64,000 bases of DNA, taken from NCBI GenBank assembly GCA_038748365.1, contig JBCDIZ010000005.1, forward strand, positions 36,092 through 100,091, in the 5' to 3' direction. The DNA comes from Pseudomonadota bacterium. GTDB taxonomy: Bacteria > Pseudomonadota > Alphaproteobacteria > Sphingomonadales > Sphingomonadaceae. A program made the position numbers and the translations under genes. Of this stretch, positions 1 through 44,232 are shown piece by piece (the stretch's first letter is position 1; every line of letters starts with the position of its first letter). Below the pieces are notes generated by a model that saw nothing but the letters and a program-made list of their open reading frames with translations, had not been told where the DNA came from and did not search any database.

Positions 1-50
1 AGCGCATAAGCGGGTGGCTCACGAATCATCAAAACGAGGACAGGCAAGCT

Positions 51-1106
51 ATGAACATCGAGAATAGCCGGGAATATTATGGTCAGGTGCTAGGCGGATC
101 GGATGATCTGAAGACTGATGCCTGTGTTACTGCCGAGCGTCCCCCAGAGGCCATCATACGGGCGCTGGCCAATGTCCATGAAGAGGTAAAGTCGCGCTAT
201 TATGGCTGCGGCTTGATTGCGCCACAGCAGCTTGAAGGTGCGCGCATTCTCGATCTCGGTTCGGGCTCGGGTCAGGACGCTTATATTCTGGCACAGCTGG
301 TGGGTGAACAGGGCGAAGTTGTCGGCGTGGATACCACTCCAGAGCAACTGGCAGTCGCCAATGCCCATATTGACTGGCACGCAGAGCGCTTCGGTTATGC
401 CAGTCCGAATGTTCGGTTTATTGAGGGCGATATTGAGAAGCTTGACTCTCTTGATCTTGAACCGGGCAGCTTTGATGTCATTGTTTCCAATTGTGTGATC
501 AATCTGGTTGCCGATAAGGGCAAGGTCTTCGGCGACGCGCATCGGTTGCTAAAACTCGGCGGCGAAATGTATTTCTCCGATGTCTATTCTGACCGCAGGG
601 TGCCGGAGCATTTGCTCAATGATCCGGTGTTGCACGGTGAGTGTCTCTCCGGCGCACTCTATTGGGGAGATTTTTTGGCGCTGGCGAAAATCGCAGGTTT
701 TACCGATCCGCGACTGGTTAAAGACCGCCCCCTGGGCATTGGCGACCCTGCGGTTGCCGCCAAGTTGGATGGCATTAATTTCTTCTCCGCCACATATCGC
801 CTGTTCAAGCTTGATGGGCTTGAGCCTGAGTGTGAGGATTACGGCCAGGCTGTGATATATAAGGGCGGGATCAGCGGTGAAGAACGCGTTTTCGCGCTCG
901 ACAAGCATCATATGATTGAGCGGGGCAAGGTTTTTCCGGTGTGCGGCAATAGCTGGAAGATGCTCGCCGATACGCGTTTTGCGAAATATTTTGATTTTAT
1001 CGGCGATTTCTCAAAACATTATGGCGTATTTGAGGGCTGCGGCACGGGTATGCCGTTTAATATGCCAAGCGAGGGTGGTGAGACTGCTCCGGCAAGCTGT
1101 TGCTGA
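51..1106 (+). CDS. arsM: Arsenite S-adenosylmethionine methyltransferase (AS3MT-like long form)
   Basis: SAM motif ILDLGSGSG. Cys pattern matches AS3MT/ArsM: DAC25, YYGC53G, SNC148VINL, GEC198LSGAL. C-terminal CC. Window edge is only 50 bp upstream. Confidence 0.85.
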   Translation: MNIENSREYYGQVLGGSDDLKTDACVTAERPPEAIIRALANVHEEVKSRYYGCGLIAPQQLEGARILDLGSGSGQDAYILAQLVGEQGEVVGVDTTPEQLAVANAHIDWHAERFGYASPNVRFIEGDIEKLDSLDLEPGSFDVIVSNCVINLVADKGKVFGDAHRLLKLGGEMYFSDVYSDRRVPEHLLNDPVLHGECLSGALYWGDFLALAKIAGFTDPRLVKDRPLGIGDPAVAAKLDGINFFSATYRLFKLDGLEPECEDYGQAVIYKGGISGEERVFALDKHHMIERGKVFPVCGNSWKMLADTRFAKYFDFIGDFSKHYGVFEGCGTGMPFNMPSEGGETAPASCC

Positions 1107-1126
1107 GTAGCAAAGAGACTGCACCT

Positions 1127-2143
1127 ATGCGTGTTTTATTGACAGGGGCGACAGGGCTAGTCGGTGGTGCACTGGCCGGTGCTTTGCTGGATTCAGGTCA
1201 TCACATCGTTGGCGTGCTGCGCGGCGAGGGTCGTACTATGCTTGACATGGATGGGCAGGACCGGGCGGCTGAAATCACGCCTTTGCAGGGAGATGTTACC
1301 CAACCTAGTTTCGGTCTTACTGGACTTCCAGATGATATTGATTTGGTTATCCATTGTGCCGCGACCACTGACTTTACCGCCAGCGATGCGGTTTATGAGA
1401 CGGTGAATATTGGCGGTGCGCGCAATGCGGTCGCGCTGGCGCAGCAGTTAGACGCGGCTTTGCTGCATGTTTCCACGGCGTATGTTTGTGGTCGGGCCGA
1501 TGGTCCGGTTTCAGAGATGCCAGCCAATCCTGAAGGCGATTTCACCAATGGCTATGAGCGTTCCAAGGCCATCGCTGAAAGCCACGTGATGCAGGCGCGC
1601 AAACAGGGCCTGGTCGCCGCGATTGCTCGGCCGAGCATCATTGTCGGGCGCTTGTCAGATGGCGCTATTCCGCGACAGGATGATTTCTATCATCTGTTTC
1701 GCCTGTTCGGTTCTCCGCTTTTGCAGCGCGTCCCGGCAATTGATGGCGCGGCTTTCGCGATTGTTCCGCTCGATCATGTGGTTTCCGGCTTGATGGAAAT
1801 GGCCGAAAACATGGCGCAGTTTGATGGCGATGCGGTGCATCTGGTTGCTGATAAACCTTTTCCGCTTGCCGATATGCTGGATATTGTCGCGGAATATGCG
1901 CGCGCGTCTCCGGCGGAGATCGTTCATCCTGATACGTACGATGTTGACCAACTCGACCGCCGCAGCCTGATGGTGCATCGCAAGGTTGGGGCGCAATTTT
2001 TTGAGTATTTTGCCCGGGTGCCCCTGTTTGAAAGCCGTGTTCTTGCAGAGAAGGCCGGGATTATTGCACCGCATATCGATAAAGCAGCGCTGCGGCGGAT
2101 GGTGGACTATTGCCATCGCACGGGGTTTTTGGATTGGCGCTGA
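1127..2143 (+). CDS. Extended SDR / NAD_binding_4 (male-sterility-like) oxidoreductase
   Basis: TGATGLVG Rossmann motif, HCAA, HVSTAYV, YERSK catalytic motif, RPSIIVG. ATG at 1127 preferred over the TTG at 1100. Confidence 0.8.
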   Translation: MRVLLTGATGLVGGALAGALLDSGHHIVGVLRGEGRTMLDMDGQDRAAEITPLQGDVTQPSFGLTGLPDDIDLVIHCAATTDFTASDAVYETVNIGGARNAVALAQQLDAALLHVSTAYVCGRADGPVSEMPANPEGDFTNGYERSKAIAESHVMQARKQGLVAAIARPSIIVGRLSDGAIPRQDDFYHLFRLFGSPLLQRVPAIDGAAFAIVPLDHVVSGLMEMAENMAQFDGDAVHLVADKPFPLADMLDIVAEYARASPAEIVHPDTYDVDQLDRRSLMVHRKVGAQFFEYFARVPLFESRVLAEKAGIIAPHIDKAALRRMVDYCHRTGFLDWR

Positions 2144-2887
2144 TTACCGGATATCCGGGTAAATATCCCCCAGCTTTTTGCGCACCCCAAAGCTCCACAT
2201 AATCCCGATCTTGAGATAGAGATAATTGGCCTTGAGCGGGCCCCAATGGGCGATGCGGCGGTCTGAAGTAATCACCGGCTTGCGCGTCATTTTCAGCTTG
2301 CCGCGTGTTGCCATGCCAATGCACAGGTCCGCTTCTTCCATAATCGTCGCATCATCCGGGATGCCACCGACGGCAAGAAAATCCTCGCGGCGGAAGAACA
2401 TCGCATGATCGCCGAACAGCAGCCGCACCCCGCGCACGAACAGATGTGGATGGGTGACAATCGGATACCAGGTCTTGATCCAGTTATGCAGCGTCGTGCC
2501 CCAACGGGTCTTTTTGCCACGGATAATCGGCAGGAAAGTACCGAGCGATATGGTGCGATTGCTGAGCGTCTGGCGCACATGGGTGATGGCATCAGGCGGC
2601 AGGATGCTATCGGCATGCAGGACAAGGACAATCGGCCCTTCTGCCTCTTCGACACCATGGTTGATCTGTGGACCACGGCCTTTTTTGGGTGCGATAATGG
2701 CGCGGAAACCGGCGTCTTTTGCCAGTTGCACCGTGGCATCCTTGCTACCGCCATCGACAAGTAGCACCTCATCGGGCGGCGGGTCCATCGCTGCGATATT
2801 GGCTATGGTTGCAGGCAAGGCCTCTTCCTCCTGCCATGTCGGGATCAGGATGGTGACAGGCTCGCCTGTTGCTTTCTGGGCAGTCAT
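2144..2887 (-). CDS. GT2 family glycosyltransferase (TIGR04283-like)
   Basis: ILIPTWQEE, VDGGSKD, LHADS, FGDHAMF, EEADL, TSDRR motifs. ATG at 2887 overlaps the upstream TGA (ATGA). Confidence 0.8.
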   Translation of the reverse strand: MTAQKATGEPVTILIPTWQEEEALPATIANIAAMDPPPDEVLLVDGGSKDATVQLAKDAGFRAIIAPKKGRGPQINHGVEEAEGPIVLVLHADSILPPDAITHVRQTLSNRTISLGTFLPIIRGKKTRWGTTLHNWIKTWYPIVTHPHLFVRGVRLLFGDHAMFFRREDFLAVGGIPDDATIMEEADLCIGMATRGKLKMTRKPVITSDRRIAHWGPLKANYLYLKIGIMWSFGVRKKLGDIYPDIR

Positions 2888-3501
2888 GGCGGCAGGCTTT
2901 CGACAAGCGCAGGCCAGCGCGTCAGGTCTTCGGGGCGGTCGCAATCGGCCAGTGTCTCCAGCATCACCGGGGCAATAGCCATCGCCTCCAGCCGCGCCAA
3001 GGTTGTCGGCAGAACCTTATCGGTACTCCATGGCATATCGCGGAACAGATCGGGCAGCGGACGCACCATACCGATCAGATAATAACCGCCATCCTCTGCC
3101 GGGCCAATAACCACCTGATGCGTTTCTAACGCGACAACAGCTTTTTGGACAATTTCGACGGTCAGATCGGGTGTATCGGCACCAAAAAATATCTGAGGGC
3201 CCGTGCCGAGCGCCGCGAGCAGGCGATTGGTCAAATCGCCTTCAGGCTGCTCGGCATAATCGGGCGTATCGCCCAGCCATTCGCGAAAGGCCATTTCCTC
3301 TTCTCCTGCATAATGCGCCACCACCGGCTGTCCGCTGGCAATCAGCGTGGCGCAGGTCCGATGCGCCAAAGTACGATGCAGCGCTGCGGCACCTGTCTCT
3401 CCCAGTGCGGGTATCAGCCGTGTCTTGGCATAGCCGGGCACCGGATATTTGGCGAAGAGACGAAGCGTTGCAAATTTTTGATCAGTTGATGATGGCATCA
3501 T
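2884..3501 (-). CDS. DUF2064 / TIGR04282-type glycosyltransferase-like protein
   Basis: FAKYPVPGYAKTRL, Q-x-GDL, GADTPDL, GPAEDGGYYLIG, PWST, LADCDRPEDL. The listed 395-aa ORF is over-extended; the start is near ATG 3501. Confidence 0.8.
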   Translation of the reverse strand: MMPSSTDQKFATLRLFAKYPVPGYAKTRLIPALGETGAAALHRTLAHRTCATLIASGQPVVAHYAGEEEMAFREWLGDTPDYAEQPEGDLTNRLLAALGTGPQIFFGADTPDLTVEIVQKAVVALETHQVVIGPAEDGGYYLIGMVRPLPDLFRDMPWSTDKVLPTTLARLEAMAIAPVMLETLADCDRPEDLTRWPALVESLPP

Positions 3502-3531: not shown

Positions 3532-3678
3532 CCAATTCCTCCCCGGCACGGGGAGGTGGCACGCCGTAGCTTTAGCGAAGGCGTGACGGAGGGGGTTCTC
3601 CTCTCGCGCAGCGCCATGCGGACAGCCCCCTCCACCATGCTGCGCATGGTCCCCCTCCCCGTGCCGGGGAGGAATTGG
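3532..3678. repeat. REP/MITE-like palindromic element with 25-bp terminal inverted repeats
   Basis: CCAATTCCTCCCCGGCACGGGGAGG (3532-3556) and its exact reverse complement CCTCCCCGTGCCGGGGAGGAATTGG (3654-3678), with internal hairpins. Intergenic. Confidence 0.8.
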
Positions 3679-3750: not shown

Positions 3751-4383
3751 ATGTCCGAGATTGTCCTGTATGACTATTTCCGCTCGACCGCGGCCTATCG
3801 GGTGCGGCTGGCGCTCAATTTGAAGGGCGTGGACTATCGCACCGAATGGGTCAATCTCGTCGATGGTGATCAGCGCAGCGCCTCTTACACAGCGCGCAAT
3901 CCGCAGGGGCTGGTGCCGATGTTGCAGATTGATGGCCATGACCTCAGCCAGTCGCTGGCGATTATCGATTATCTTGATGCGCGCTTCCCCGCACCGCGCA
4001 TGCTCCCTGAAGACCCGGCCGCGCGGGCCAAAGTACTGGCCGATGCCATGGGGATCATCGCCGATATCCATCCGATCAACAATTTGCGCGTCTGGCAGTA
4101 TTTGAAAGACCCGTTCGGCCGTTCACAGGATGATGTGGTGCAATGGATGCATTATTGGATGACTTTGGGCTATACCGCGCTGGAACAGGCGGCGCCGGAG
4201 CAGGGCGTTTTTGGTGGCGAGACCCCGAACCTCACCGATATCTGCCTGACCGCGCAAATGTATAATGCCGAGCGTTTTGGCTTGCCTATGGAGGCGTTTC
4301 CCAAGCTGAGGCGTATTCATGCTGAGCTTGGCGAATTGGAAGCATTCAAAGCCGCTCACCCTGACAGGATTGCCACCGAATAA
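3751..4383 (+). CDS. maiA: Maleylacetoacetate isomerase (GST zeta)
   Basis: LYDYFRSTAAYRVR, NPQGLVP, QSLAIIDYLD, DIHPINNLRV. Located in the hppD/FAH neighbourhood. Confidence 0.92.
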   Translation: MSEIVLYDYFRSTAAYRVRLALNLKGVDYRTEWVNLVDGDQRSASYTARNPQGLVPMLQIDGHDLSQSLAIIDYLDARFPAPRMLPEDPAARAKVLADAMGIIADIHPINNLRVWQYLKDPFGRSQDDVVQWMHYWMTLGYTALEQAAPEQGVFGGETPNLTDICLTAQMYNAERFGLPMEAFPKLRRIHAELGELEAFKAAHPDRIATE

Positions 4384-6590
4384 TGTCTTTGCGTTTTTTG
4401 TTTTCTACTGCCTCGATATCCATTCTCGCATTGGCTGGGACACCTGCTGCAGCCATTGCACAGGATCAGCCAGACCCATGCCTGTTGATCGATTGCACCC
4501 CAGATGATGGCAATGAACAATCAGTCGAAGTTATCGATCCATCTACCATTACGTTGGAAAACATTACCGTTCTAGGTGCTCCGCTTGATGATCCGCTGGG
4601 CGATAAGGCCTATGCCGTCAGCGAAATAGGGCCGCGGGAATTGGCCAATGAAGCTAGCGGACGCATCGAAAATGCCTTGCGCAATGTGCCGGGCCTGCAG
4701 CAATTTCGTCGTTCGGATTCACGCTCGGCCAACCCGACCAGCCAGGGCGTAACCCTGCGCGGGCTCGGCGGCAACGCTGCCAGCCGCGCTTTGCTGACAC
4801 TGGATGGTGTGCCGCAGGCCGATCCCTTTGGCGGCTGGGTCAGCTTTCCAGGCTATGATGCAATGGCGATTGAGAATGTTCGCGTCCGCCGAGGCGGCGG
4901 CACAGGCAGCGATGGTGCTGGAGCCTTGGCTGGGACGATCGAGTTACGAACAAGAACACTACCAAACCCTGATCTGTTAAATGATTTGCCAATGCCTTCG
5001 AGGGAAATTGAGGGAACTTTGCGCTATGGCAGCCGCGACAGCTTGGAAGCCAATATCGCCGCCGAGCAGAAGCTGGGAACCGGCGGGCTGACCTTCTCAG
5101 CGCAATATGCGCGCGGCGATGGCTTTATCCCGGTGATTGAGGAACAGCGCGGCAGCGTTGATCGTCCGGCGGAGTACCAGCAATATGGCTTTGGCGCGCG
5201 TTTTGTCGCGCCATTGAGCGACGATACCGAGATACAGGCCAATATCCGCGCCTATAGCGATGAGCGCGAGCGCGGCTTTGCCTTTAGCGACAACCGCAAT
5301 GATGGCGCCGATGCGTCGGTACGGCTGGTGTCGCGCGGGCGTTGGCAATGGGAGGCGCTGGCCTATCTGCAGTTGCGCGAATTTCAGACCAGCTTTGGTG
5401 CTGTCGAGGCGGAGCGCAATTCTGTGCGGCAGGTGCTTGATCAGTTTAACGTGCCTTCGACGGGGCTGGGCGCAAAGTTCGAGATCCGCCCGCCAGTAGG
5501 CGACAATGCCGAGCTGCGTATAGGCGGCGATTGGCGGCGCACTGTCGGTGAGACGAATGAGCGCTTCTTCTTCCAAAATGCTGCGCCCTTGCGCGGGCGC
5601 AATGCCGGTGGGCGCACCGATACGCTGGGCGGCTATGTTGAGGCGAGTTGGCAGGTGACGCCGACATTTTTGCTCACCGGCGGCGGGCGACTGGATTATT
5701 GGTCGATTGCCAATGGTTTCCGTCGCGAATTTGAACTGGCGCCTGATATTGCCGGGCAGATTCGCAGTGATGACAGCTTTGCCGATCGTGATGGCATTGA
5801 AGGCACGGGGCGGATCGGCTTTGCCTATAATGCCGCCAGCCTGTTGACGCTGCGCGGTGCGGCCTATCTTGGCTGGCGCTTGCCGACGCTGAACGAGCTG
5901 TACCGGCCTTTCCGCGTTGGCGCCGATGCCACTGCCGCCAATGAATTGCTCGAACCCGAGCGTTTGCGCGGGGTGGAATTGGGTCTCGACTGGGAAATCT
6001 ATACGCTGCGGTTCAGCGGCACGGTGTTCTATAACCAGCTCGACAATGCCATTGCCAATGTGACGCTCGATAGCGGCCCCGGCCTGTTCCCCGGTGTCGG
6101 CTTTGTCTCAGGGGCAGGGGTGTTTCGCCAGCGCCAGAATCTGGATGCTGTCGATGCGTTGGGTGTCGAGATTGATGCCGCGATTGATATTGGCGCGTTC
6201 AGCATGTCGGTGGGTTACGCTTATGTCGATAGCGAAGTCGCGGGTAATGCCGGCGCGCAGGCGGCGATTGACGGGCTGCGTCCGGCGCAGGTGCCGCAGC
6301 ATTTTGCCAATGCCGCGCTCGACTGGCAGCCGCGCCGCAGCGATATCAGCGCCGGCGTCACGCTGCGCTATATTGGCAGCCAGTTTGAGGACGACAGCAA
6401 TACGCGCCTGCTTGATGATGCCTTCACCCTCGATGCGCGCGCCAGCTATGGTCTGAGCGATACGCTGATGCTGGAGGGCTGGGTGGAAAATCTTTTCGAT
6501 GCAGAAGTGCAGGCGGGGATCAGCGGTGCAGGTGTGGTCGAACGCGCCCGACCGCAAACCTTCTGGCTCGGCCTGAATGTGCGGCTGTGA
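4383..6590 (+). CDS. TonB-dependent receptor
   Basis: Signal peptide, plug motif (LRGLGGNAASRALLTLDGVP), beta-strand alternation, C-terminal ENLFD...FWLGLNVRL. TAATG overlap with maiA. Confidence 0.9.
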   Translation: MSLRFLFSTASISILALAGTPAAAIAQDQPDPCLLIDCTPDDGNEQSVEVIDPSTITLENITVLGAPLDDPLGDKAYAVSEIGPRELANEASGRIENALRNVPGLQQFRRSDSRSANPTSQGVTLRGLGGNAASRALLTLDGVPQADPFGGWVSFPGYDAMAIENVRVRRGGGTGSDGAGALAGTIELRTRTLPNPDLLNDLPMPSREIEGTLRYGSRDSLEANIAAEQKLGTGGLTFSAQYARGDGFIPVIEEQRGSVDRPAEYQQYGFGARFVAPLSDDTEIQANIRAYSDERERGFAFSDNRNDGADASVRLVSRGRWQWEALAYLQLREFQTSFGAVEAERNSVRQVLDQFNVPSTGLGAKFEIRPPVGDNAELRIGGDWRRTVGETNERFFFQNAAPLRGRNAGGRTDTLGGYVEASWQVTPTFLLTGGGRLDYWSIANGFRREFELAPDIAGQIRSDDSFADRDGIEGTGRIGFAYNAASLLTLRGAAYLGWRLPTLNELYRPFRVGADATAANELLEPERLRGVELGLDWEIYTLRFSGTVFYNQLDNAIANVTLDSGPGLFPGVGFVSGAGVFRQRQNLDAVDALGVEIDAAIDIGAFSMSVGYAYVDSEVAGNAGAQAAIDGLRPAQVPQHFANAALDWQPRRSDISAGVTLRYIGSQFEDDSNTRLLDDAFTLDARASYGLSDTLMLEGWVENLFDAEVQAGISGAGVVERARPQTFWLGLNVRL

Positions 6591-7048
6591 TGTCTGAGAG
6601 TAACCGCAAAAGGCTGGCGGATTTTCTGCCCTATCAGCTTTCGATCACCACCAATGCGGTCAGCAATCTCATCGCCGAGGAATATCGCAGCCGCTTTGGC
6701 CTTAAAATCACCGAGTGGCGGATAATGGCGGTGCTGGGCGATCTGGAACAGGTGACACAGCGCGAACTGGTGGCCGTCACCCGGATGGACAAGGTCGCGG
6801 TCAATCGTGCCTGCAAGGCTCTGGTCGAGCGCAAGCTGATCGCCCGCGCGCCCCATGCCAGCGATGGCCGCTCGCACCAGCTGGCGCTAACGGTGACGGG
6901 TGCAGAGCTTTATGGCGAAATCATGCCGCTGGCCGAGGATATGGAACGACGGATTTTCGCGGTGCTTTCGGCGGAAGAGGAAGCACAGATGCGCGATATG
7001 CTGACCCGCCTGCGTGAGGCGAGCGATGCTTTGCGGGGTGAGGAATAG
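6587..7048 (+). CDS. MarR family transcriptional regulator
   Basis: FLPYQLS, EWRIMAVL, DKVAVNRA, DGRS winged-helix motifs. Overlaps the TBDR stop. Confidence 0.9.
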   Translation: MMSESNRKRLADFLPYQLSITTNAVSNLIAEEYRSRFGLKITEWRIMAVLGDLEQVTQRELVAVTRMDKVAVNRACKALVERKLIARAPHASDGRSHQLALTVTGAELYGEIMPLAEDMERRIFAVLSAEEEAQMRDMLTRLREASDALRGEE

Positions 7049-7065
7049 AGAACTTGCTTCACTAT

Positions 7066-7146
7066 AATCCGTTCGCCTTTAGCGAAGTCGAGAGGCCGGT
7101 GCAACTGGAGAGCTGTGTATCGACTGCGCTCGACACGAACGGGATT
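7066..7146. repeat. REP-like imperfect palindrome (CCGTTCG...CGAACGG type)
   Basis: ATCCGTTCG...AGTCGAGA paired with ATCGACTGCGCTCGACACGAACGGGAT. Lies between convergent genes. Confidence 0.65.
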
Positions 7147-7174
7147 ATTTCAAAACTAACTCTCAAATTCCGCG

Positions 7175-7846
7175 TTAAGCCGCCTCCGCCTGTTGAACAC
7201 TATCTGACAGTTTCTGCGCCAAGTCGCGATTGATGCGGGCGCGCAGGGCGTTGTCGATATCGGGCCATTTTGCGCACAGCTTGCGCAAGGCGGCGCTGTC
7301 CCAGGCGAGTATTTCAGCATTGTCGCTGCTGATCACCGTGGCGCTGGCCGGGCCGTTGAGCAGCCAGGCGACCTCGCCGATAAAATTATTCTCTCGCAAC
7401 GGGAAGCTATCGCGGCCCTTGCTCACATGTACGATGCCGTCCGTTATGAAATAGAGCCTTTCGGGGATTTGCCCTTCCAGAGTCAGCCGCAAATCCTGCT
7501 CACCCGAAAGCCGGGTTGCCGCTTTGAGCAGGCGGCGGAACTGGCCGGGATTGAAATTGTCGAAACGGCTATAGAGCGCCTTGTCCTCATCGCTCATGCC
7601 CCAGGTGGTGCGCTCCAGAGCGATGCGCCCCATCACCACGACATTGGCGATGGTCATCAACATTGTAGAACCGATGGCAATCCACAAGGTCACCTCGGGC
7701 ACGAAGAGATAATAGGCGATGTAAAAGCCGTTGCCGATCAGCGTTAATATGCGCAGCGTCAGCTCGCCGCGCACCGCAAAGGCGATGATGTAGATGATCG
7801 CGCCGATATTGATCAGGATTGTGCCGTCAGACCAGCCCATAATCAT
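7175..7846 (-). CDS. Membrane protein with cyclic-nucleotide-binding (Popeye-like) domain
   Basis: Three N-terminal hydrophobic segments followed by LYFITDG...FIGEVAWL...ASATV CNBD motifs. No DNA-binding HTH. Confidence 0.7.
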   Translation of the reverse strand: MIMGWSDGTILINIGAIIYIIAFAVRGELTLRILTLIGNGFYIAYYLFVPEVTLWIAIGSTMLMTIANVVVMGRIALERTTWGMSDEDKALYSRFDNFNPGQFRRLLKAATRLSGEQDLRLTLEGQIPERLYFITDGIVHVSKGRDSFPLRENNFIGEVAWLLNGPASATVISSDNAEILAWDSAALRKLCAKWPDIDNALRARINRDLAQKLSDSVQQAEAA

Positions 7847-7956
7847 GCTCCCTGCCCATGGAGATATTATGCGACCTTTATGGCACTGCTATAACCGCTG
7901 CGCGCAATTTGGAAAAGACATGCAAAAGCGCATTGCAGAATCGGTGCAAAAGGAAT

Positions 7957-7976
7957 ATAGTTACAGATGATACTAT
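7957..7976. promoter_or_regulatory. Candidate MarR operator upstream of hppD
   Basis: Imperfect 20-bp palindrome ATAGTTACAG/ATGATACTAT about 35 bp before the hppD start. Confidence 0.5.
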
Positions 7977-8011
7977 TTTCAGATCACCCCTAATCTGTGG
8001 AGACCCTGCTG

Positions 8012-9139
8012 ATGAACGCCCCTGTGACTGCAAAAGCCTCTGATGTTGCCAACCCCGCCGGTCTGGACGGGTTTGAGTTTATCGAATTCTGCGCCCCCGA
8101 AAAGGGCCAGCTCGAGCCGGTATTTGAAGCCATGGGCTTTTCCCATGTCGCAACGCACCGTAGCAAGCAGGTGCATCTTTGGCGTCAGGGTGGCATCAAT
8201 CTGATCATCAACTATGAGCCGCGCAGCGCGGCCTGGTATTTTGCCCGTGAACATGGTCCTTCGGCTTGCGGCATGGCCTTCCGTGTGCATGATGCCGCCA
8301 AGGCCTATGATCATCTGATCGCCGCCGGAGCTGAGCCGGTGCATGTCGAAACCGGCCCGATGGAACTGCGCCTGCCCGCCATTCGCGGCATTGGCGGCGC
8401 GATTCTGTATCTGGTGGATCGCTATGAGGGTAAGGCAGGCAAGGATGATCTGACCATCTACGATATCGATTTTGAATATCTACCCGGTGTTGACCGCCGC
8501 CCCGAAGGCGCGGGCTTCCAGCTGATCGATCACCTGACGCACAACGTCTATACCGGCCGCATGACCTATTGGGCCGATTATTATGAGAAGCTGTTCAATT
8601 TCCGCGAGATCCGCTTTTTCGACATTAAGGGCGAATATACCGGCCTGACCTCCAAGGCGCTGACCGCGCCTGACGGCAAGATCAAAATCCCGCTCAATGA
8701 AGAAGGCGAGGGCGGCAAGGGTCAGATTGAGGAATTTCTGCGTGCATTTAACGGCGAGGGCATCCAGCATATCGCTCTGATTTGTGATGATCTGGTCGGC
8801 TGCTGGGACCGGCTGAAGAAACTCGGTGTGCCGTTCATGACCGCACCGCCGGCGACCTATTATGAGATGCTCGATGAGCGTCTGCCCGGCCATGGTGAGA
8901 ACCCGGATGAGCTGAAAATGCGCGGCATCTTGCTCGATGGCACCACCGAAGGTGGTAACGCACGTCTGCTGCTGCAAATCTTTGCCGAGCCGCAAATCGG
9001 TCCGGTGTTCTTTGAATTTATCCAGCGCAAGGGCGATGACGGCTTTGGCGAGGGCAATTTCAAGGCGCTGTTCGAAAGTATCGAGCGCGACCAGATCGCG
9101 CGCGGTGTGCTGGATGCAGACAAGGCTCCGGCGGAGTAA
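8012..9139 (+). CDS. hppD: 4-hydroxyphenylpyruvate dioxygenase
   Basis: [59 protein letters not shown] at 8012. Confidence 0.96.
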
Positions 9140-17675: not shown

Positions 17676-18155
17676 TTACATTTGCACAGAATGGTTAAAA
17701 TAGTGTTCGGCAATCACCCAAAGCCCGGCAAAGGCGATGGCCACGCCATAGGGAATTTCGAGTTTTGCCTTGGAACGGCGTATTTTGTGGATCATCGCCA
17801 TGAACACGGTCAGGATACCGCCGGCGATCGACATGATGAGCACCAGCATCAGCATATCTTGCCAAGAAAACCACAATGCGAGGGCACTCAAAAGTTTAAC
17901 ATCGCCGCCGCCCATGGCACCGATAGCAAATAAAGCAGTGAAGATAGCAAACACCCCCAGCGCCAACCCGATCTGCATCGCGATATCGGGCCATAGCGAC
18001 ATGCCTGTTGCCCACCAGAATATTGGAGCGGCAAGAGCGATACCGGCGTTAAGCCAGTTCTCAATCTCGCGTCGGCGAATGTCGGTATAGCTGGCATGGG
18101 CAAGTGCAATTGCCAACGCGCCAAGCATTCCGTAAATGATCTGAACCCCCGTCAT
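17676..18155 (-). CDS. cpaA: Prepilin peptidase CpaA (A24)
   Basis: YTDIRRREIENW, MGGGDVKLL, IPYGVAIA. Confidence 0.92.
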   Translation of the reverse strand: MTGVQIIYGMLGALAIALAHASYTDIRRREIENWLNAGIALAAPIFWWATGMSLWPDIAMQIGLALGVFAIFTALFAIGAMGGGDVKLLSALALWFSWQDMLMLVLIMSIAGGILTVFMAMIHKIRRSKAKLEIPYGVAIAFAGLWVIAEHYFNHSVQM

Positions 18156-42142: not shown

Positions 42143-43210
42143 ATGGACACATACCCTGTTGTTATTATTGGCGCTGGACCGGCCGGAATCGGCATTGGGG
42201 CGCTGCTTTCACAATGTGCGGTACCGGCGCTGATATTGGAACGCGGCCGTATCGGAGAAAGCATGAAGCGCTGGCCGAAGGAAACGCGTTTTATCTCGCC
42301 ATCCTTTACCGGCAACTTTTTTGGTGCGGTTGATCTGAATGCGATTACGCCCGACAGCTCGCCCGCCTTCGGGATGCAGACAGAGCATCCATCGGGCGTG
42401 CAATATATGGACTATCTTGAAGATGTCGCCGATATCCACAAGCTGGATATTGAAGAGGGCGTCGAGGTTCTCGACTTTGAGGTCCAGGATAATGGCATGA
42501 TACTGCTCACCACAAGCGAGGGCGATGTGCAATGCCATGCGCTGATCTGGGCCGGGGGAGAATTTCAATATAAGAAAACCATACCGCACACGATACGCGT
42601 CGGCGAATCCTACAAGGCTCTGCCCCAAGGGCATCATGTCATTATCGGCGGCGCGGAAAGCGGCATGGAGACGGCATATAATCTGGTGAAAAACGGCTCT
42701 ACGGTAAGTGTCGTCGATCCGTCAGCGCCCTGGGCCACACGGGTTAGCGATTCCAGCTATGGCCTCAGCCCATTCACATTTTCGCGTGTGCGCTTTCTGG
42801 AAAAGAGCGAAAAAGCAGAGTTTATTCCGGAAGCTGCTGAAGAGATCACCGACAAAACGGTGCGGACGCAAAGCCGTGTTCTCAACCTTGAGCATCCGGC
42901 GATCGACGCCACCGGCTTTGACATACAGCAAAGCTTGGCCGGAAAGCTGTTCGACTTCAAAGATGGCCATCCCGCTTTGACCGAACATGATGAGAGCACG
43001 ATCCACAAAAATGTCTATCTCGTTGGCCCTAATGTTCAGCACGACAAGGCGATATTCTGCTTCATCTACAAATATCGCCAGCGCTTTGCTGTGATTGTGA
43101 ACGAGATGCTGCGCCGCTGGGAAACGCAGAGTCCGATGATTGCCGACTATGCCGCCAAGGGCTTTTTCCTCGATGATCTGAGCTGTTGCGACGGGGAATG
43201 CGAATGCTGA
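42143..43210 (+). CDS. NAD(P)/FAD-dependent oxidoreductase with C-terminal CCxxxCxC
   Basis: IIGAGPAGIG, EHPSG..Y, WAGGEF, IIGGAESG, FCFIYKYRQRF, tail DDLSCCDGECEC. Confidence 0.85.
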   Translation: MDTYPVVIIGAGPAGIGIGALLSQCAVPALILERGRIGESMKRWPKETRFISPSFTGNFFGAVDLNAITPDSSPAFGMQTEHPSGVQYMDYLEDVADIHKLDIEEGVEVLDFEVQDNGMILLTTSEGDVQCHALIWAGGEFQYKKTIPHTIRVGESYKALPQGHHVIIGGAESGMETAYNLVKNGSTVSVVDPSAPWATRVSDSSYGLSPFTFSRVRFLEKSEKAEFIPEAAEEITDKTVRTQSRVLNLEHPAIDATGFDIQQSLAGKLFDFKDGHPALTEHDESTIHKNVYLVGPNVQHDKAIFCFIYKYRQRFAVIVNEMLRRWETQSPMIADYAAKGFFLDDLSCCDGECEC

Positions 43211-44232
43211 GCGGGGCATTGCAAAAGGCGGCCGATTTCATGTTCGGCTCGGGTACGGCCTTTGTGCTGATCGGCGCTATAATCGGGGGTTCGCTTATCG
43301 GAATCGCGCTGCCCGGGGCAGGCGACATGCTCTCCGGCCAGATTGATTATACCATCTTGCTGCTGGTCTTCCTGTTGCTGTTTGAAGTGCGGGTGCAGAA
43401 TGTGCTGTCCAGCCTCAACCGCATACCGTTTCTCGCTGCTACCCTGATTGCCAATTTTATCATCATCCCGGCGCTCGGTTTTGGCCTTGCCTCGGCTTTT
43501 ATGTTCGCGCATCCGCTGTTTTTTATCGGCCTTGTTATCTATTTCATGGCGCCGTGCACCGACTGGTTTTTAGGCTTCACCCGGCTGGCAAAGGGCAACA
43601 CGGCTTTGGGCGCGGCGCTTTTGCCGATCAATATGATCGTCCAGCTTCTGCTCTATCCGGTCTATCTGCACCTATTCGGCATAGACGCGATAGAAACCGG
43701 CGCAGGCGATATCGCGCAAACGCTGTGGCAATGGTTTCTGGTTCCGCTTCTCGCGGCACTGATCCTGCGCTTTGTTGCGGAACGGATCTTGCGCGAAGAT
43801 CAAATGCAATTCGTGCAAAATCTGGTGGCGCTGATTGTTCCGCTTTTATTGGCGCTTCTCGTTGGGCAGATATTTGCTGCCAATATTGGCACCTTAATCT
43901 CCAATATCGCGATTTTCCCGCTGATCCTCTGTGCCATCTTTCTGTTCTTTGTCCTGACTTTCTTGCTAAGCGAAGCGATCGCGAAAATCATGAAGCTGAG
44001 CTATGAAGACCGCGTATTGATGACAATGACCACCGCAGCACGCAATGCGCCGCTCATGCTGGCTGTCACCATGGTGGTCATTCCTGACCAGCCGGTTGTT
44101 TATGCCGCGATCATTATCGGCATGCTGGTCGAGTTTCCGCATCTGGTGGCTTTGAAAGTGATTCTGGAACGCCGCCGTGCTTTGGGTGAAGAAGGGGTGA
44201 CGGAGCCACATAGGAATCCTCTGGCCAGATAA
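43204..44232 (+). CDS. Acr3/SBF (BART superfamily) transporter
   Basis: About 10 TM helices, APCTDW..FT.LAKGN, ARNAPL, GMLVEFP. ATG 43204 overlaps the upstream stop. Confidence 0.8.
   Translation: MLSGALQKAADFMFGSGTAFVLIGAIIGGSLIGIALPGAGDMLSGQIDYTILLLVFLLLFEVRVQNVLSSLNRIPFLAATLIANFIIIPALGFGLASAFMFAHPLFFIGLVIYFMAPCTDWFLGFTRLAKGNTALGAALLPINMIVQLLLYPVYLHLFGIDAIETGAGDIAQTLWQWFLVPLLAALILRFVAERILREDQMQFVQNLVALIVPLLLALLVGQIFAANIGTLISNIAIFPLILCAIFLFFVLTFLLSEAIAKIMKLSYEDRVLMTMTTAARNAPLMLAVTMVVIPDQPVVYAAIIIGMLVEFPHLVALKVILERRRALGEEGVTEPHRNPLAR

Follow-up and report, generated by a model that had tools for sequence, protein, structure and literature searches.

Does a bacterium that keeps an arsenite methyltransferase gene beside a glycosyltransferase gene and a DUF2064 gene build complex organoarsenicals such as arsenosugars? 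The question is raised by a locus at positions 51 to 3501 of a 64,000-nt stretch of DNA (the window, G000:C5:36092-100091, with window position 1 at C5:36092) from a 3.14 Mb, 99.99% complete genome. The source organism is a marine sphingomonad of the Alterisphingorhabdus/Parasphingorhabdus group, and an earlier interpretation made from the letters of the window alone (the sequence-only reading) was right to call it sphingomonad-like. All four genes described by that reading are present, within or close to the bounds it gave them and with strong family matches: a methyltransferase (MT), a short-chain dehydrogenase/reductase (SDR), a family-2 glycosyltransferase (GT2) and a DUF2064 protein. Its picture of a four-gene locus was too small, since at least six conserved genes belong to the locus. 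These four genes form the right half of a conserved cluster in which a radical S-adenosylmethionine (SAM) gene that we call rSAM-B, a rhodanese and a flavin disulfide reductase (FADox) diverge from MT and SDR, which in turn converge on GT2 and DUF2064. Our preferred reading, which we hold to be about as likely as not, is that this cluster encodes an organoarsenical pathway like that of the radical SAM enzyme ArsS, proceeding through adenosylation, a sugar-1-phosphate, a nucleoside diphosphate (NDP) sugar and glycosyl transfer.

A conserved cluster around the four genes

The MT gene (positions 51 to 1106, plus strand, 351 aa) is preceded in the window by the last 50 nt (1 to 50) of the divergent FADox-MT intergenic region, which hold its GAGGA ribosome-binding site. 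This region is about 380 nt long here (L003 ~17764-18142 plus window 1-50) versus about 127 nt in the related genome G003, and a promoter and terminator scan of it yielded nothing useful. MT matches PF13847 at 114 bits and carries the SAM motif ILDLGSGSGQD of a class I SAM-binding protein. It resembles Chlamydomonas ArsM (PDB 5evj, E 1.6e-101 across residues 7-333) and CmArsM (PDB 4fr0/4kw7, E 3e-80), with full-length similarity that includes the C-terminal domain. In the PDB alignments its C25, C53, C148 and C198 align with the equivalents of CmArsM C44, C72, C174 and C224, and the four cysteines are retained in all 16 cluster-linked MT orthologues aligned at full length. The AS3MT-type methyltransferase with four cysteines that had been recognised from the letters is confirmed by these matches, and we predict from the sequence that MT is a full-length AS3MT/ArsM-type enzyme that methylates As(III). 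All NCBIfam ArsM models score it below their cut-offs (the highest is NF008823, 154 vs 263 bits), and the arsenosugar-ArsM model NF038099 gives it 81 bits vs a cut-off of 400. In the NCBIfam scan this AS3MT-type protein exceeded the cut-off of none of the models.

SDR (1127 to 2143, plus strand, 338 aa) follows MT, as had been noted; its true start is the ATG at 1127 (MRVLLTGATGLVGG), 20 nt past the MT stop, and not the TTG at 1100 first assigned to it. The protein is an extended SDR of the thioester-reductase or fatty-acyl reductase type (PF07993, 122 bits; thioester-reductase domain TIGR01746, 125 bits) with the Rossmann motif TGATGLVGG and the catalytic pair YERSK, and its nearest solved structures are the terminal reductase domains MxaA (E 5e-15) and AusA (E 1e-11) of nonribosomal peptide and polyketide synthases. 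SDR and GT2 are convergent, and their stop codons abut without a gap at 2143/2144 (TGA/TTA). The last GT2 codons contain a perfect palindrome of 12 nt, CCGGATATCCGG (window 2141-2158). GT2 (2144 to 2887, minus strand, 247 aa) begins at 2887, not at 2944, and its ATG overlaps the TGA of DUF2064 (2884 to 3501, minus strand, 205 aa) as ATGA. With this overlap, and with the pairing conserved among relatives, the coupled pair proposed earlier stands. Assignment of the pair to TIGR04282 and TIGR04283 held for DUF2064 (TIGR04282, 171.8 bits vs a cut-off of 134; PF09837, 89 bits) and not for GT2, which lies below the TIGR04283 cut-off (164.1 vs 182 bits) with a clear GT2 domain (PF00535, 79 bits).

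The predicted fold of DUF2064 speaks against the view of it as a glycosyltransferase. The AlphaFold model (predicted local distance difference test, pLDDT, 93.6) has as its top structural match PDB 3cgx, an uncharacterised protein of the same family (E 2e-19 to DUF2064). Ranks 2 to 50 are all nucleotidyltransferases or MobA-like and probable nucleotidyltransferases, among them the folds of KdsB, CofC-like MM2497, 3-phosphoglycerate guanylyltransferase, FbiD, IspD, GlmU and RmlA, and there is no glycosyltransferase among the top 50 PDB structural matches. The conserved motifs KTRL, G(S/T)DxP and GPAxDGGY fit the same fold, and we predict that DUF2064 is a sugar-phosphate or phospho-acid nucleotidyltransferase.

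Three minus-strand genes lie to the left of the window and diverge from MT. FADox (contig C5:34305-~35762), which adjoins MT, is a class-I pyridine-nucleotide disulfide oxidoreductase with the redox pair CLNTGC; it is followed by a rhodanese with a signal peptide (C5:33538-~34107) and by rSAM-B (C5:32380-33360), 3 kb from MT. The rhodanese is confined to the genus, and we rejected it as a core part of the cluster. It was also rejected as an Acr2/Cdc25-type arsenate reductase, as the arginine of the CX5R motif is missing from its loop (CNNNFAE) and it is a genus-confined protein with a signal peptide. A 284-aa open reading frame beside rSAM-B, conserved in the genus only and with no family match, is not counted in the cluster. 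The rSAM-B protein has its CX3CX2C core as CNLACASC (PF04055, 63 bits) and a Cys-rich C terminus that ends in HCARFCVLGGASCSG. Its homologues are about 319-322 aa long, and the protein predicted by gene callers is cut short to 285 aa. The first 41 conserved codons are in frame at C5:33239-33361 (L003 15239-15361, minus strand) with no preceding ATG, GTG or TTG; the open frame begins behind a TAA, then come a GGAGAG Shine-Dalgarno sequence, 6 nt and ATA (ATC in G002 and G003), and the start is probably a non-canonical AUA/AUC. The public NCBI name of the protein is merely 'radical SAM protein', and at least 8,000 rSAM-B sequence clusters exist at 90% identity. Its AlphaFold model (pLDDT 81) resembles BlsE, SuiB, SkfB and anSME, matches that do not reveal the substrate.

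The conserved set consists of rSAM-B, FADox, SDR, GT2 and DUF2064, with MT in part of the genomes, and its order and orientation vary. Comparison of the locus proteins by tblastn with the DUF2064 regions of relatives recovered the set, at 35-90% identity, from five species within the genus and, beyond it, from several genera of the same family. The cluster also occurs in Acetobacteraceae, Beijerinckiaceae and Caulobacterales, and in the Gammaproteobacteria Cocleimonas and Pseudohongiella. Its recurrence in different genera and families and in two classes shows that the gene arrangement is not due to chance. When all species genomes were searched with an rSAM-B alignment, at least 580 loci came up, mostly alphaproteobacterial with a few gammaproteobacterial ones (Cocleimonas flava, Pseudohongiella). 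Within 10 kb of rSAM-B in the best 80 of these loci, GT2 was counted 32 times, FADox 25 times and DUF2064 20 times, followed by the fatty-acid-hydroxylase family, SDR and MT (14 each), methylthioadenosine phosphorylase (MTAP; 10, in at least four lineages) and DedA/VTT (3). MTAP never occurs together with MT or SDR in the 80 loci (L090-L169), which suggests two alternative versions of the cluster, though the exclusivity may simply follow lineage. In the genome studied here MTAP is a single, unlinked copy on contig 7.

We also drew 251 Alphaproteobacteria evenly across the class and searched them for rSAM-B with an rSAM-B-specific profile, for AS3MT-type MT at E < 1e-90 and for true arsS (TIGR04167). 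Since these genomes are mutually related, the co-occurrence counts are descriptive and no statistical test was applied. TIGR04282 is present in 100 of the 251 genomes and rSAM-B in 76 (about 30%), 73 of which also have TIGR04282. TIGR04282 is also carried by 27 of the 175 genomes that lack rSAM-B, and in three of those 27 it stands beside true ArsS. True ArsS was found in 3 of the 251 genomes, with TIGR04282 2-7 kb away each time. AS3MT-type MT was found in seven, all of them positive for both rSAM-B and TIGR04282 and spread over six families besides this one; in other genomes rSAM-B and MT are directly adjacent. The rSAM-B type is the regular radical SAM partner of the TIGR04282/TIGR04283-type pair in Alphaproteobacteria. 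The earlier statement that the pair travels with arsM and ArsS is therefore correct for arsM (all seven carriers have the system, usually beside MT) and for the three ArsS genomes.

A possible organoarsenical pathway

The biochemically defined enzyme ArsS adenosylates dimethylated trivalent arsenic, DMAs(III), to give 5'-deoxy-5'-dimethylarsinoyladenosine (PMC13598754). One of the three true-ArsS clusters (G127) runs in one direction through VTT, FADox, ArsS, DUF3179, a fatty-acid (FA) hydroxylase, MTAP (TIGR01694, 279 bits vs a cut-off of 275), GT2 and DUF2064. Another (G056) has FADox-ArsS beside GT2 and DUF2064. The third (G178) comprises ArsS, a VTT-DUF547 fusion, FADox, a GT87-type membrane glycosyltransferase and a GT2-DUF2064-GT2 fusion, the last being a single 713-aa protein (L069:7697-9838, G178:C5). 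FADox of the same subfamily adjoins ArsS in all three. The ArsS-type and rSAM-B-type clusters differ in the radical SAM gene; the other components, FADox, DedA/VTT, FA hydroxylase, MTAP, GT2 and DUF2064, are common to both. If the radical SAM step yields a 5'-substituted 5'-deoxyadenosine, MTAP in the clusters is to be expected.

In the pathway that we propose, arsenite would be turned into a conjugate of a 5-deoxy-5-arsinoyl-pentose, which may be an arsenosugar-like compound or an arsenolipid head group. MT would methylate As(III) to MAs(III) and DMAs(III), as its strong homology and four cysteines suggest. The genomic context points to rSAM-B, a protein of the SPASM/twitch type, as the putative counterpart of ArsS, which would join the 5'-deoxyadenosyl radical to trivalent arsenic and give 5'-arsinoyl-5'-deoxyadenosine. 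MTAP, which is encoded within many sister clusters and on contig 7 here, would remove adenine and leave a pentose-1-phosphate. DUF2064, judged by its predicted fold, could then transfer a nucleoside monophosphate to form an NDP-pentose, and the translationally coupled GT2 may move the pentose to an acceptor, for example glycerol, a lipid or polyprenyl phosphate. SDR might reduce or epimerise the sugar or the aglycone, the weakest step of the scheme, and FADox, with its redox pair, would keep arsenic or enzyme thiols reduced. Family assignments and, by modelling, the fold are what may be called established; every catalytic step we infer.

To our knowledge, arsenosugar synthesis has been worked out no further than its first two enzymes, ArsM and ArsS, and this locus and its relatives offer a testable order of enzymes past 5'-dimethylarsinoyl-adenosine (MTAP, DUF2064, GT2), together with a dedicated flavin reductase. 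A broader proposal can be made tentatively: rSAM-B may do the work of ArsS in heterotrophic bacteria and may define, with DUF2064 and GT2, the steps that follow adenosylation (phosphorolysis, NDP-sugar formation and transfer), which would make Alphaproteobacteria of sea and soil, beside algae and cyanobacteria, widespread producers of complex organoarsenicals. Many carriers lack arsM and, if the proposal is true, would start from environmental methylarsenicals. The MT, TIGR04282 and TIGR04283 families are already known by name. What appears to be new is a distinct radical SAM family in the position of ArsS, an accessory set common to both types of cluster and the nucleotidyltransferase fold of DUF2064. 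The partner radical SAM protein in Alphaproteobacteria nearly always belongs to this different, unstudied family. Should rSAM-B act on arsenic, complex organoarsenicals in seawater and soil would come from a much wider range of producers than has been assumed; if it does not, thousands of alphaproteobacterial genes bear a misleading NCBI name, 'arsenosugar biosynthesis glycosyltransferase', and a function has yet to be assigned to a three-gene system that is very common. Within the genus there is a natural control pair, with strains that have MT and one that does not.

Points against the pathway and rival explanations

Several observations weigh against an arsenic pathway, and the first group concerns rSAM-B. 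The sequence-only reading pointed to the region upstream of position 1 and to the rest of the genome as places in which to look for arsS, and took its absence, jointly with two experimental outcomes, as evidence against arsenosugar synthesis. We found no true arsS (TIGR04167) in the 99.99%-complete genome, and the gene upstream belongs to a different radical SAM family. The best TIGR04167 match in the genome is rSAM-B itself, with 66 bits vs a cut-off of 300 and over model positions 3-150 only. In a whole-protein hhalign comparison rSAM-B and ArsS align with a probability of 98.7% over 174 columns, all within the radical SAM core; their C-terminal domains give a non-significant 1.5%, and rSAM-B has no Pfam match to DUF3641, the C-terminal Cys/Sec-rich domain. 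We therefore rejected rSAM-B as a divergent ArsS and did not file it under that name. Two observations on rSAM-B count for the pathway. Both proteins end in H-C-x(2-3)-C-x(6-7)-S-C-x-G with an identical span in a MAFFT alignment, a resemblance limited to the last ~15 residues (HCxxxCxxGGxSC vs HCxxCxxGxGSSC), and among 18,950 NCBIfam models ArsS is the second match of rSAM-B after the Rv1681 family (102 vs 380 bits), both far below cut-off. No PDB structure of ArsS or rSAM-B was found by sequence and profile, and both profiles match the same generic SPASM/twitch enzymes.

The second group of contrary points concerns arsenic genes. The cluster contains no ArsR, arsenite pump or MTAP gene. AS3MT-type MT is absent from 69 of the 76 rSAM-B genomes in the class sample (three of the 69 have weak matches to other methyltransferases), and about 85-90% of the genomes with the system lack arsM. 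In the same-genus genome G002 (A. coralli; L024:10738-11895) MT alone is missing and the five other cluster genes are intact, with ~200 nt remaining between SDR and FADox; G007 likewise lacks MT. The earlier suggestion that the organism may make arsenosugars was a reasonable one, and it is weakened by these carriers without arsM and by the loss of MT within the genus. The three true-ArsS genomes and two sphingomonads that were tested also gave only generic methyltransferase matches and no ArsM. The true-ArsS genomes lack ArsM too, which weakens a missing ArsM as an argument against arsenic.

The third group concerns a wider role. In many Alphaproteobacteria outside the sphingomonads the genes are unlinked and lie in long housekeeping synteny blocks (L036, L038, L039, L041, L054-L056, L063, L066 and L081). 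GT2 and DUF2064 are found there in a row of MutY, DciA, a CcrM-like methylase, RNase HII, a PA0069-type radical SAM protein, GT2, DUF2064, MoaB, SLT, family-4 UDG, ETF-QO, TPR and IspE, and rSAM-B stands in those genomes beside metZ, apaG, GTP cyclohydrolase I and trkH; such synteny suggests a more general role. Our literature searches found no functional study of TIGR04282, TIGR04283 or rSAM-B, nor one under DUF2064, COG3222, PF09837 or arsenosugar plus glycosyltransferase.

The remark that no ars resistance genes flank the locus extends to the whole genome, in which no Acr3, ArsB or ArsH scores above threshold and a single ArsC lies on another contig. The sole Acr3-like match (window 43186-44232; 76 bits vs the Acr3 cut-off of 283) was rejected as a pump, being an SBF-family protein (bile-acid/sodium symporter) far below cut-off. 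There seems to be no recognised arsenite efflux pump in the genome.

Since most rSAM-B genomes lack arsM, a serious rival is that the product of the core (rSAM-B, DUF2064, GT2 and FADox) is a 5-deoxypentose or another glycoconjugate unconnected with arsenic. The radical acceptor could then be another soft atom (selenium, sulfur, antimony or P(III)) or a carbon substrate, and MT and SDR would be optional tailoring or piggy-backing genes in some lineages. We regard this as doubtful. It would account for the prevalence of the core in about 30% of the sampled Alphaproteobacteria, for its housekeeping synteny and its many carriers without ArsM, for the dropping of MT only by G002 and for the separateness of the rSAM-B family from ArsS. 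Rhodanese, glutathione- or mercuric-reductase-like FADox and DedA are linked to sulfur and selenium handling in other systems, and their presence among the accessory genes points the same way. The same explanation leaves aside that AS3MT-type genes occur in core genomes only (all seven), usually adjacent to the core, in many orders and in two classes, that the same accessory set surrounds the biochemically defined ArsS, and that true-ArsS genomes are without ArsM as well.

It is unlikely that MT, with or without SDR, is a chance neighbour serving stand-alone detoxification or volatilisation of arsenite, while GT2-DUF2064 has an envelope or cofactor function. MT and SDR do converge from the opposite strand on GT2 and DUF2064, their GC content at third codon positions is slightly lower (0.56-0.57 vs 0.59-0.75 in neighbouring genes), MT is dispensable in G002, and a detoxifying MT would make sense in a genome with no other arsenite defence. 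Chance is at odds with the position of MT beside rSAM-B, GT2 and DUF2064 in at least five families of two classes and in different orders, with its restriction in the class sample to genomes that have the system, and with the retention of SDR in the cluster even where MT is missing.

A part for DUF2064, GT2 and rSAM-B in molybdenum-cofactor-like or other cofactor nucleotide chemistry is very improbable. Such a part would suit the MobA/CofC-like fold of DUF2064, its place beside MoaB in many genomes, the MobA gene that flanks the G127 cluster and the best NCBIfam match of rSAM-B, Rv1681, which is known as MoeX; the MoaB adjacency, however, belongs to the long housekeeping block, the Rv1681 score is far below cut-off, and MTAP, ArsM, FA hydroxylase and GT2 do not fit. 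Finally, a canonical cyanobacterial-type arsenosugar cluster with arsM and true arsS, to which the TIGR04282 score and the NCBI name of the pair would lead, has next to no chance of being right, as neither the genome nor 40 relatives contain a TIGR04167 member (which refutes arsS unless it lies in the unassembled 0.01%), GT2 is below the TIGR04283 cut-off and MT falls far short of the arsenosugar-ArsM model.

Flanking sequences and comparison with known systems

Right of the locus, between DUF2064 and maiA, lies a 147-bp element (3532 to 3678) with 28-nt terminal inverted repeats that are 96% complementary, plus an inner palindrome. About 40 further copies with 70-85% identity are scattered genome-wide, and the element is probably a dispersed repeat of the miniature inverted-repeat transposable element (MITE) or repetitive extragenic palindromic (REP) kind, outside the system. 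The region from 3751 to 9139 is a tyrosine/homogentisate catabolism neighbourhood with conserved synteny within the genus and no relation to the cluster; it holds genes for maleylacetoacetate isomerase (maiA, 3751-4383), a TonB-dependent receptor (4383-6590), a MarR regulator (6587-7048), a cyclic-nucleotide-binding (cNMP-binding) protein (7175-7846, minus strand) and 4-hydroxyphenylpyruvate dioxygenase (7997-9139).

Among characterised enzymes, AS3MT, CrArsM and CmArsM (PDB 5evj, 4fr0, 8xt7) share with MT the three-domain full-length similarity, the SAM motif and the four cysteines. Unlike them, MT lies outside any ars operon, with no ArsR, in a biosynthetic-looking cluster, and it is under the cut-offs of all NCBIfam bacterial ArsM models. 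The predicted fold of DUF2064 is like that of CofC, FbiD, 3-phosphoglycerate guanylyltransferase, KdsB, IspD and RmlA (template modelling score, TM, 0.6-0.8), although the sequences are only 10-19% identical to it and NCBIfam names the family a glycosyltransferase.

In the hopanoid side-chain pathway HpnH/HpnG/HpnA/HpnI, radical SAM adenosylation is followed by removal of adenine by a member of the PNP/MTAP family, which leaves a ribosyl group, and then by an SDR and a GT2. The cluster studied here may follow a parallel tool-kit logic. It differs in that its proteins are no members of these families (HpnH 33 bits and HpnA 52 bits, far below cut-off), in a substrate that is not a triterpene and in the addition of the nucleotidyltransferase DUF2064.

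In mycobacterial 5-methylthio-xylofuranose capping, the MTX lipid donor is made by MtxS (Rv0539), a GT2 (PMC12088412). This locus has no GT-C gene, and its likeness to that system is one of analogy only: in both cases a GT2 would act on a 5-deoxy-5-heteroatom pentose, there derived from an adenosine thioether, and the GT87 of G178 may parallel the route through a lipid-linked donor.

The closest comparison is with the ArsM-ArsS pathway of the Synechocystis type. The locus departs from it in rSAM-B, which belongs to another, uncurated family with a C-terminal domain that cannot be aligned with that of ArsS, in an AS3MT-type MT that stays below the cut-off of the arsenosugar-ArsM model, and in the addition of a thioester-reductase-type SDR. 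It agrees with that pathway in having an As(III) methyltransferase near a radical SAM gene with a TIGR04282/TIGR04283-type pair nearby, and the alphaproteobacterial clusters with true ArsS carry the same FADox, DedA/VTT, FA hydroxylase and MTAP.

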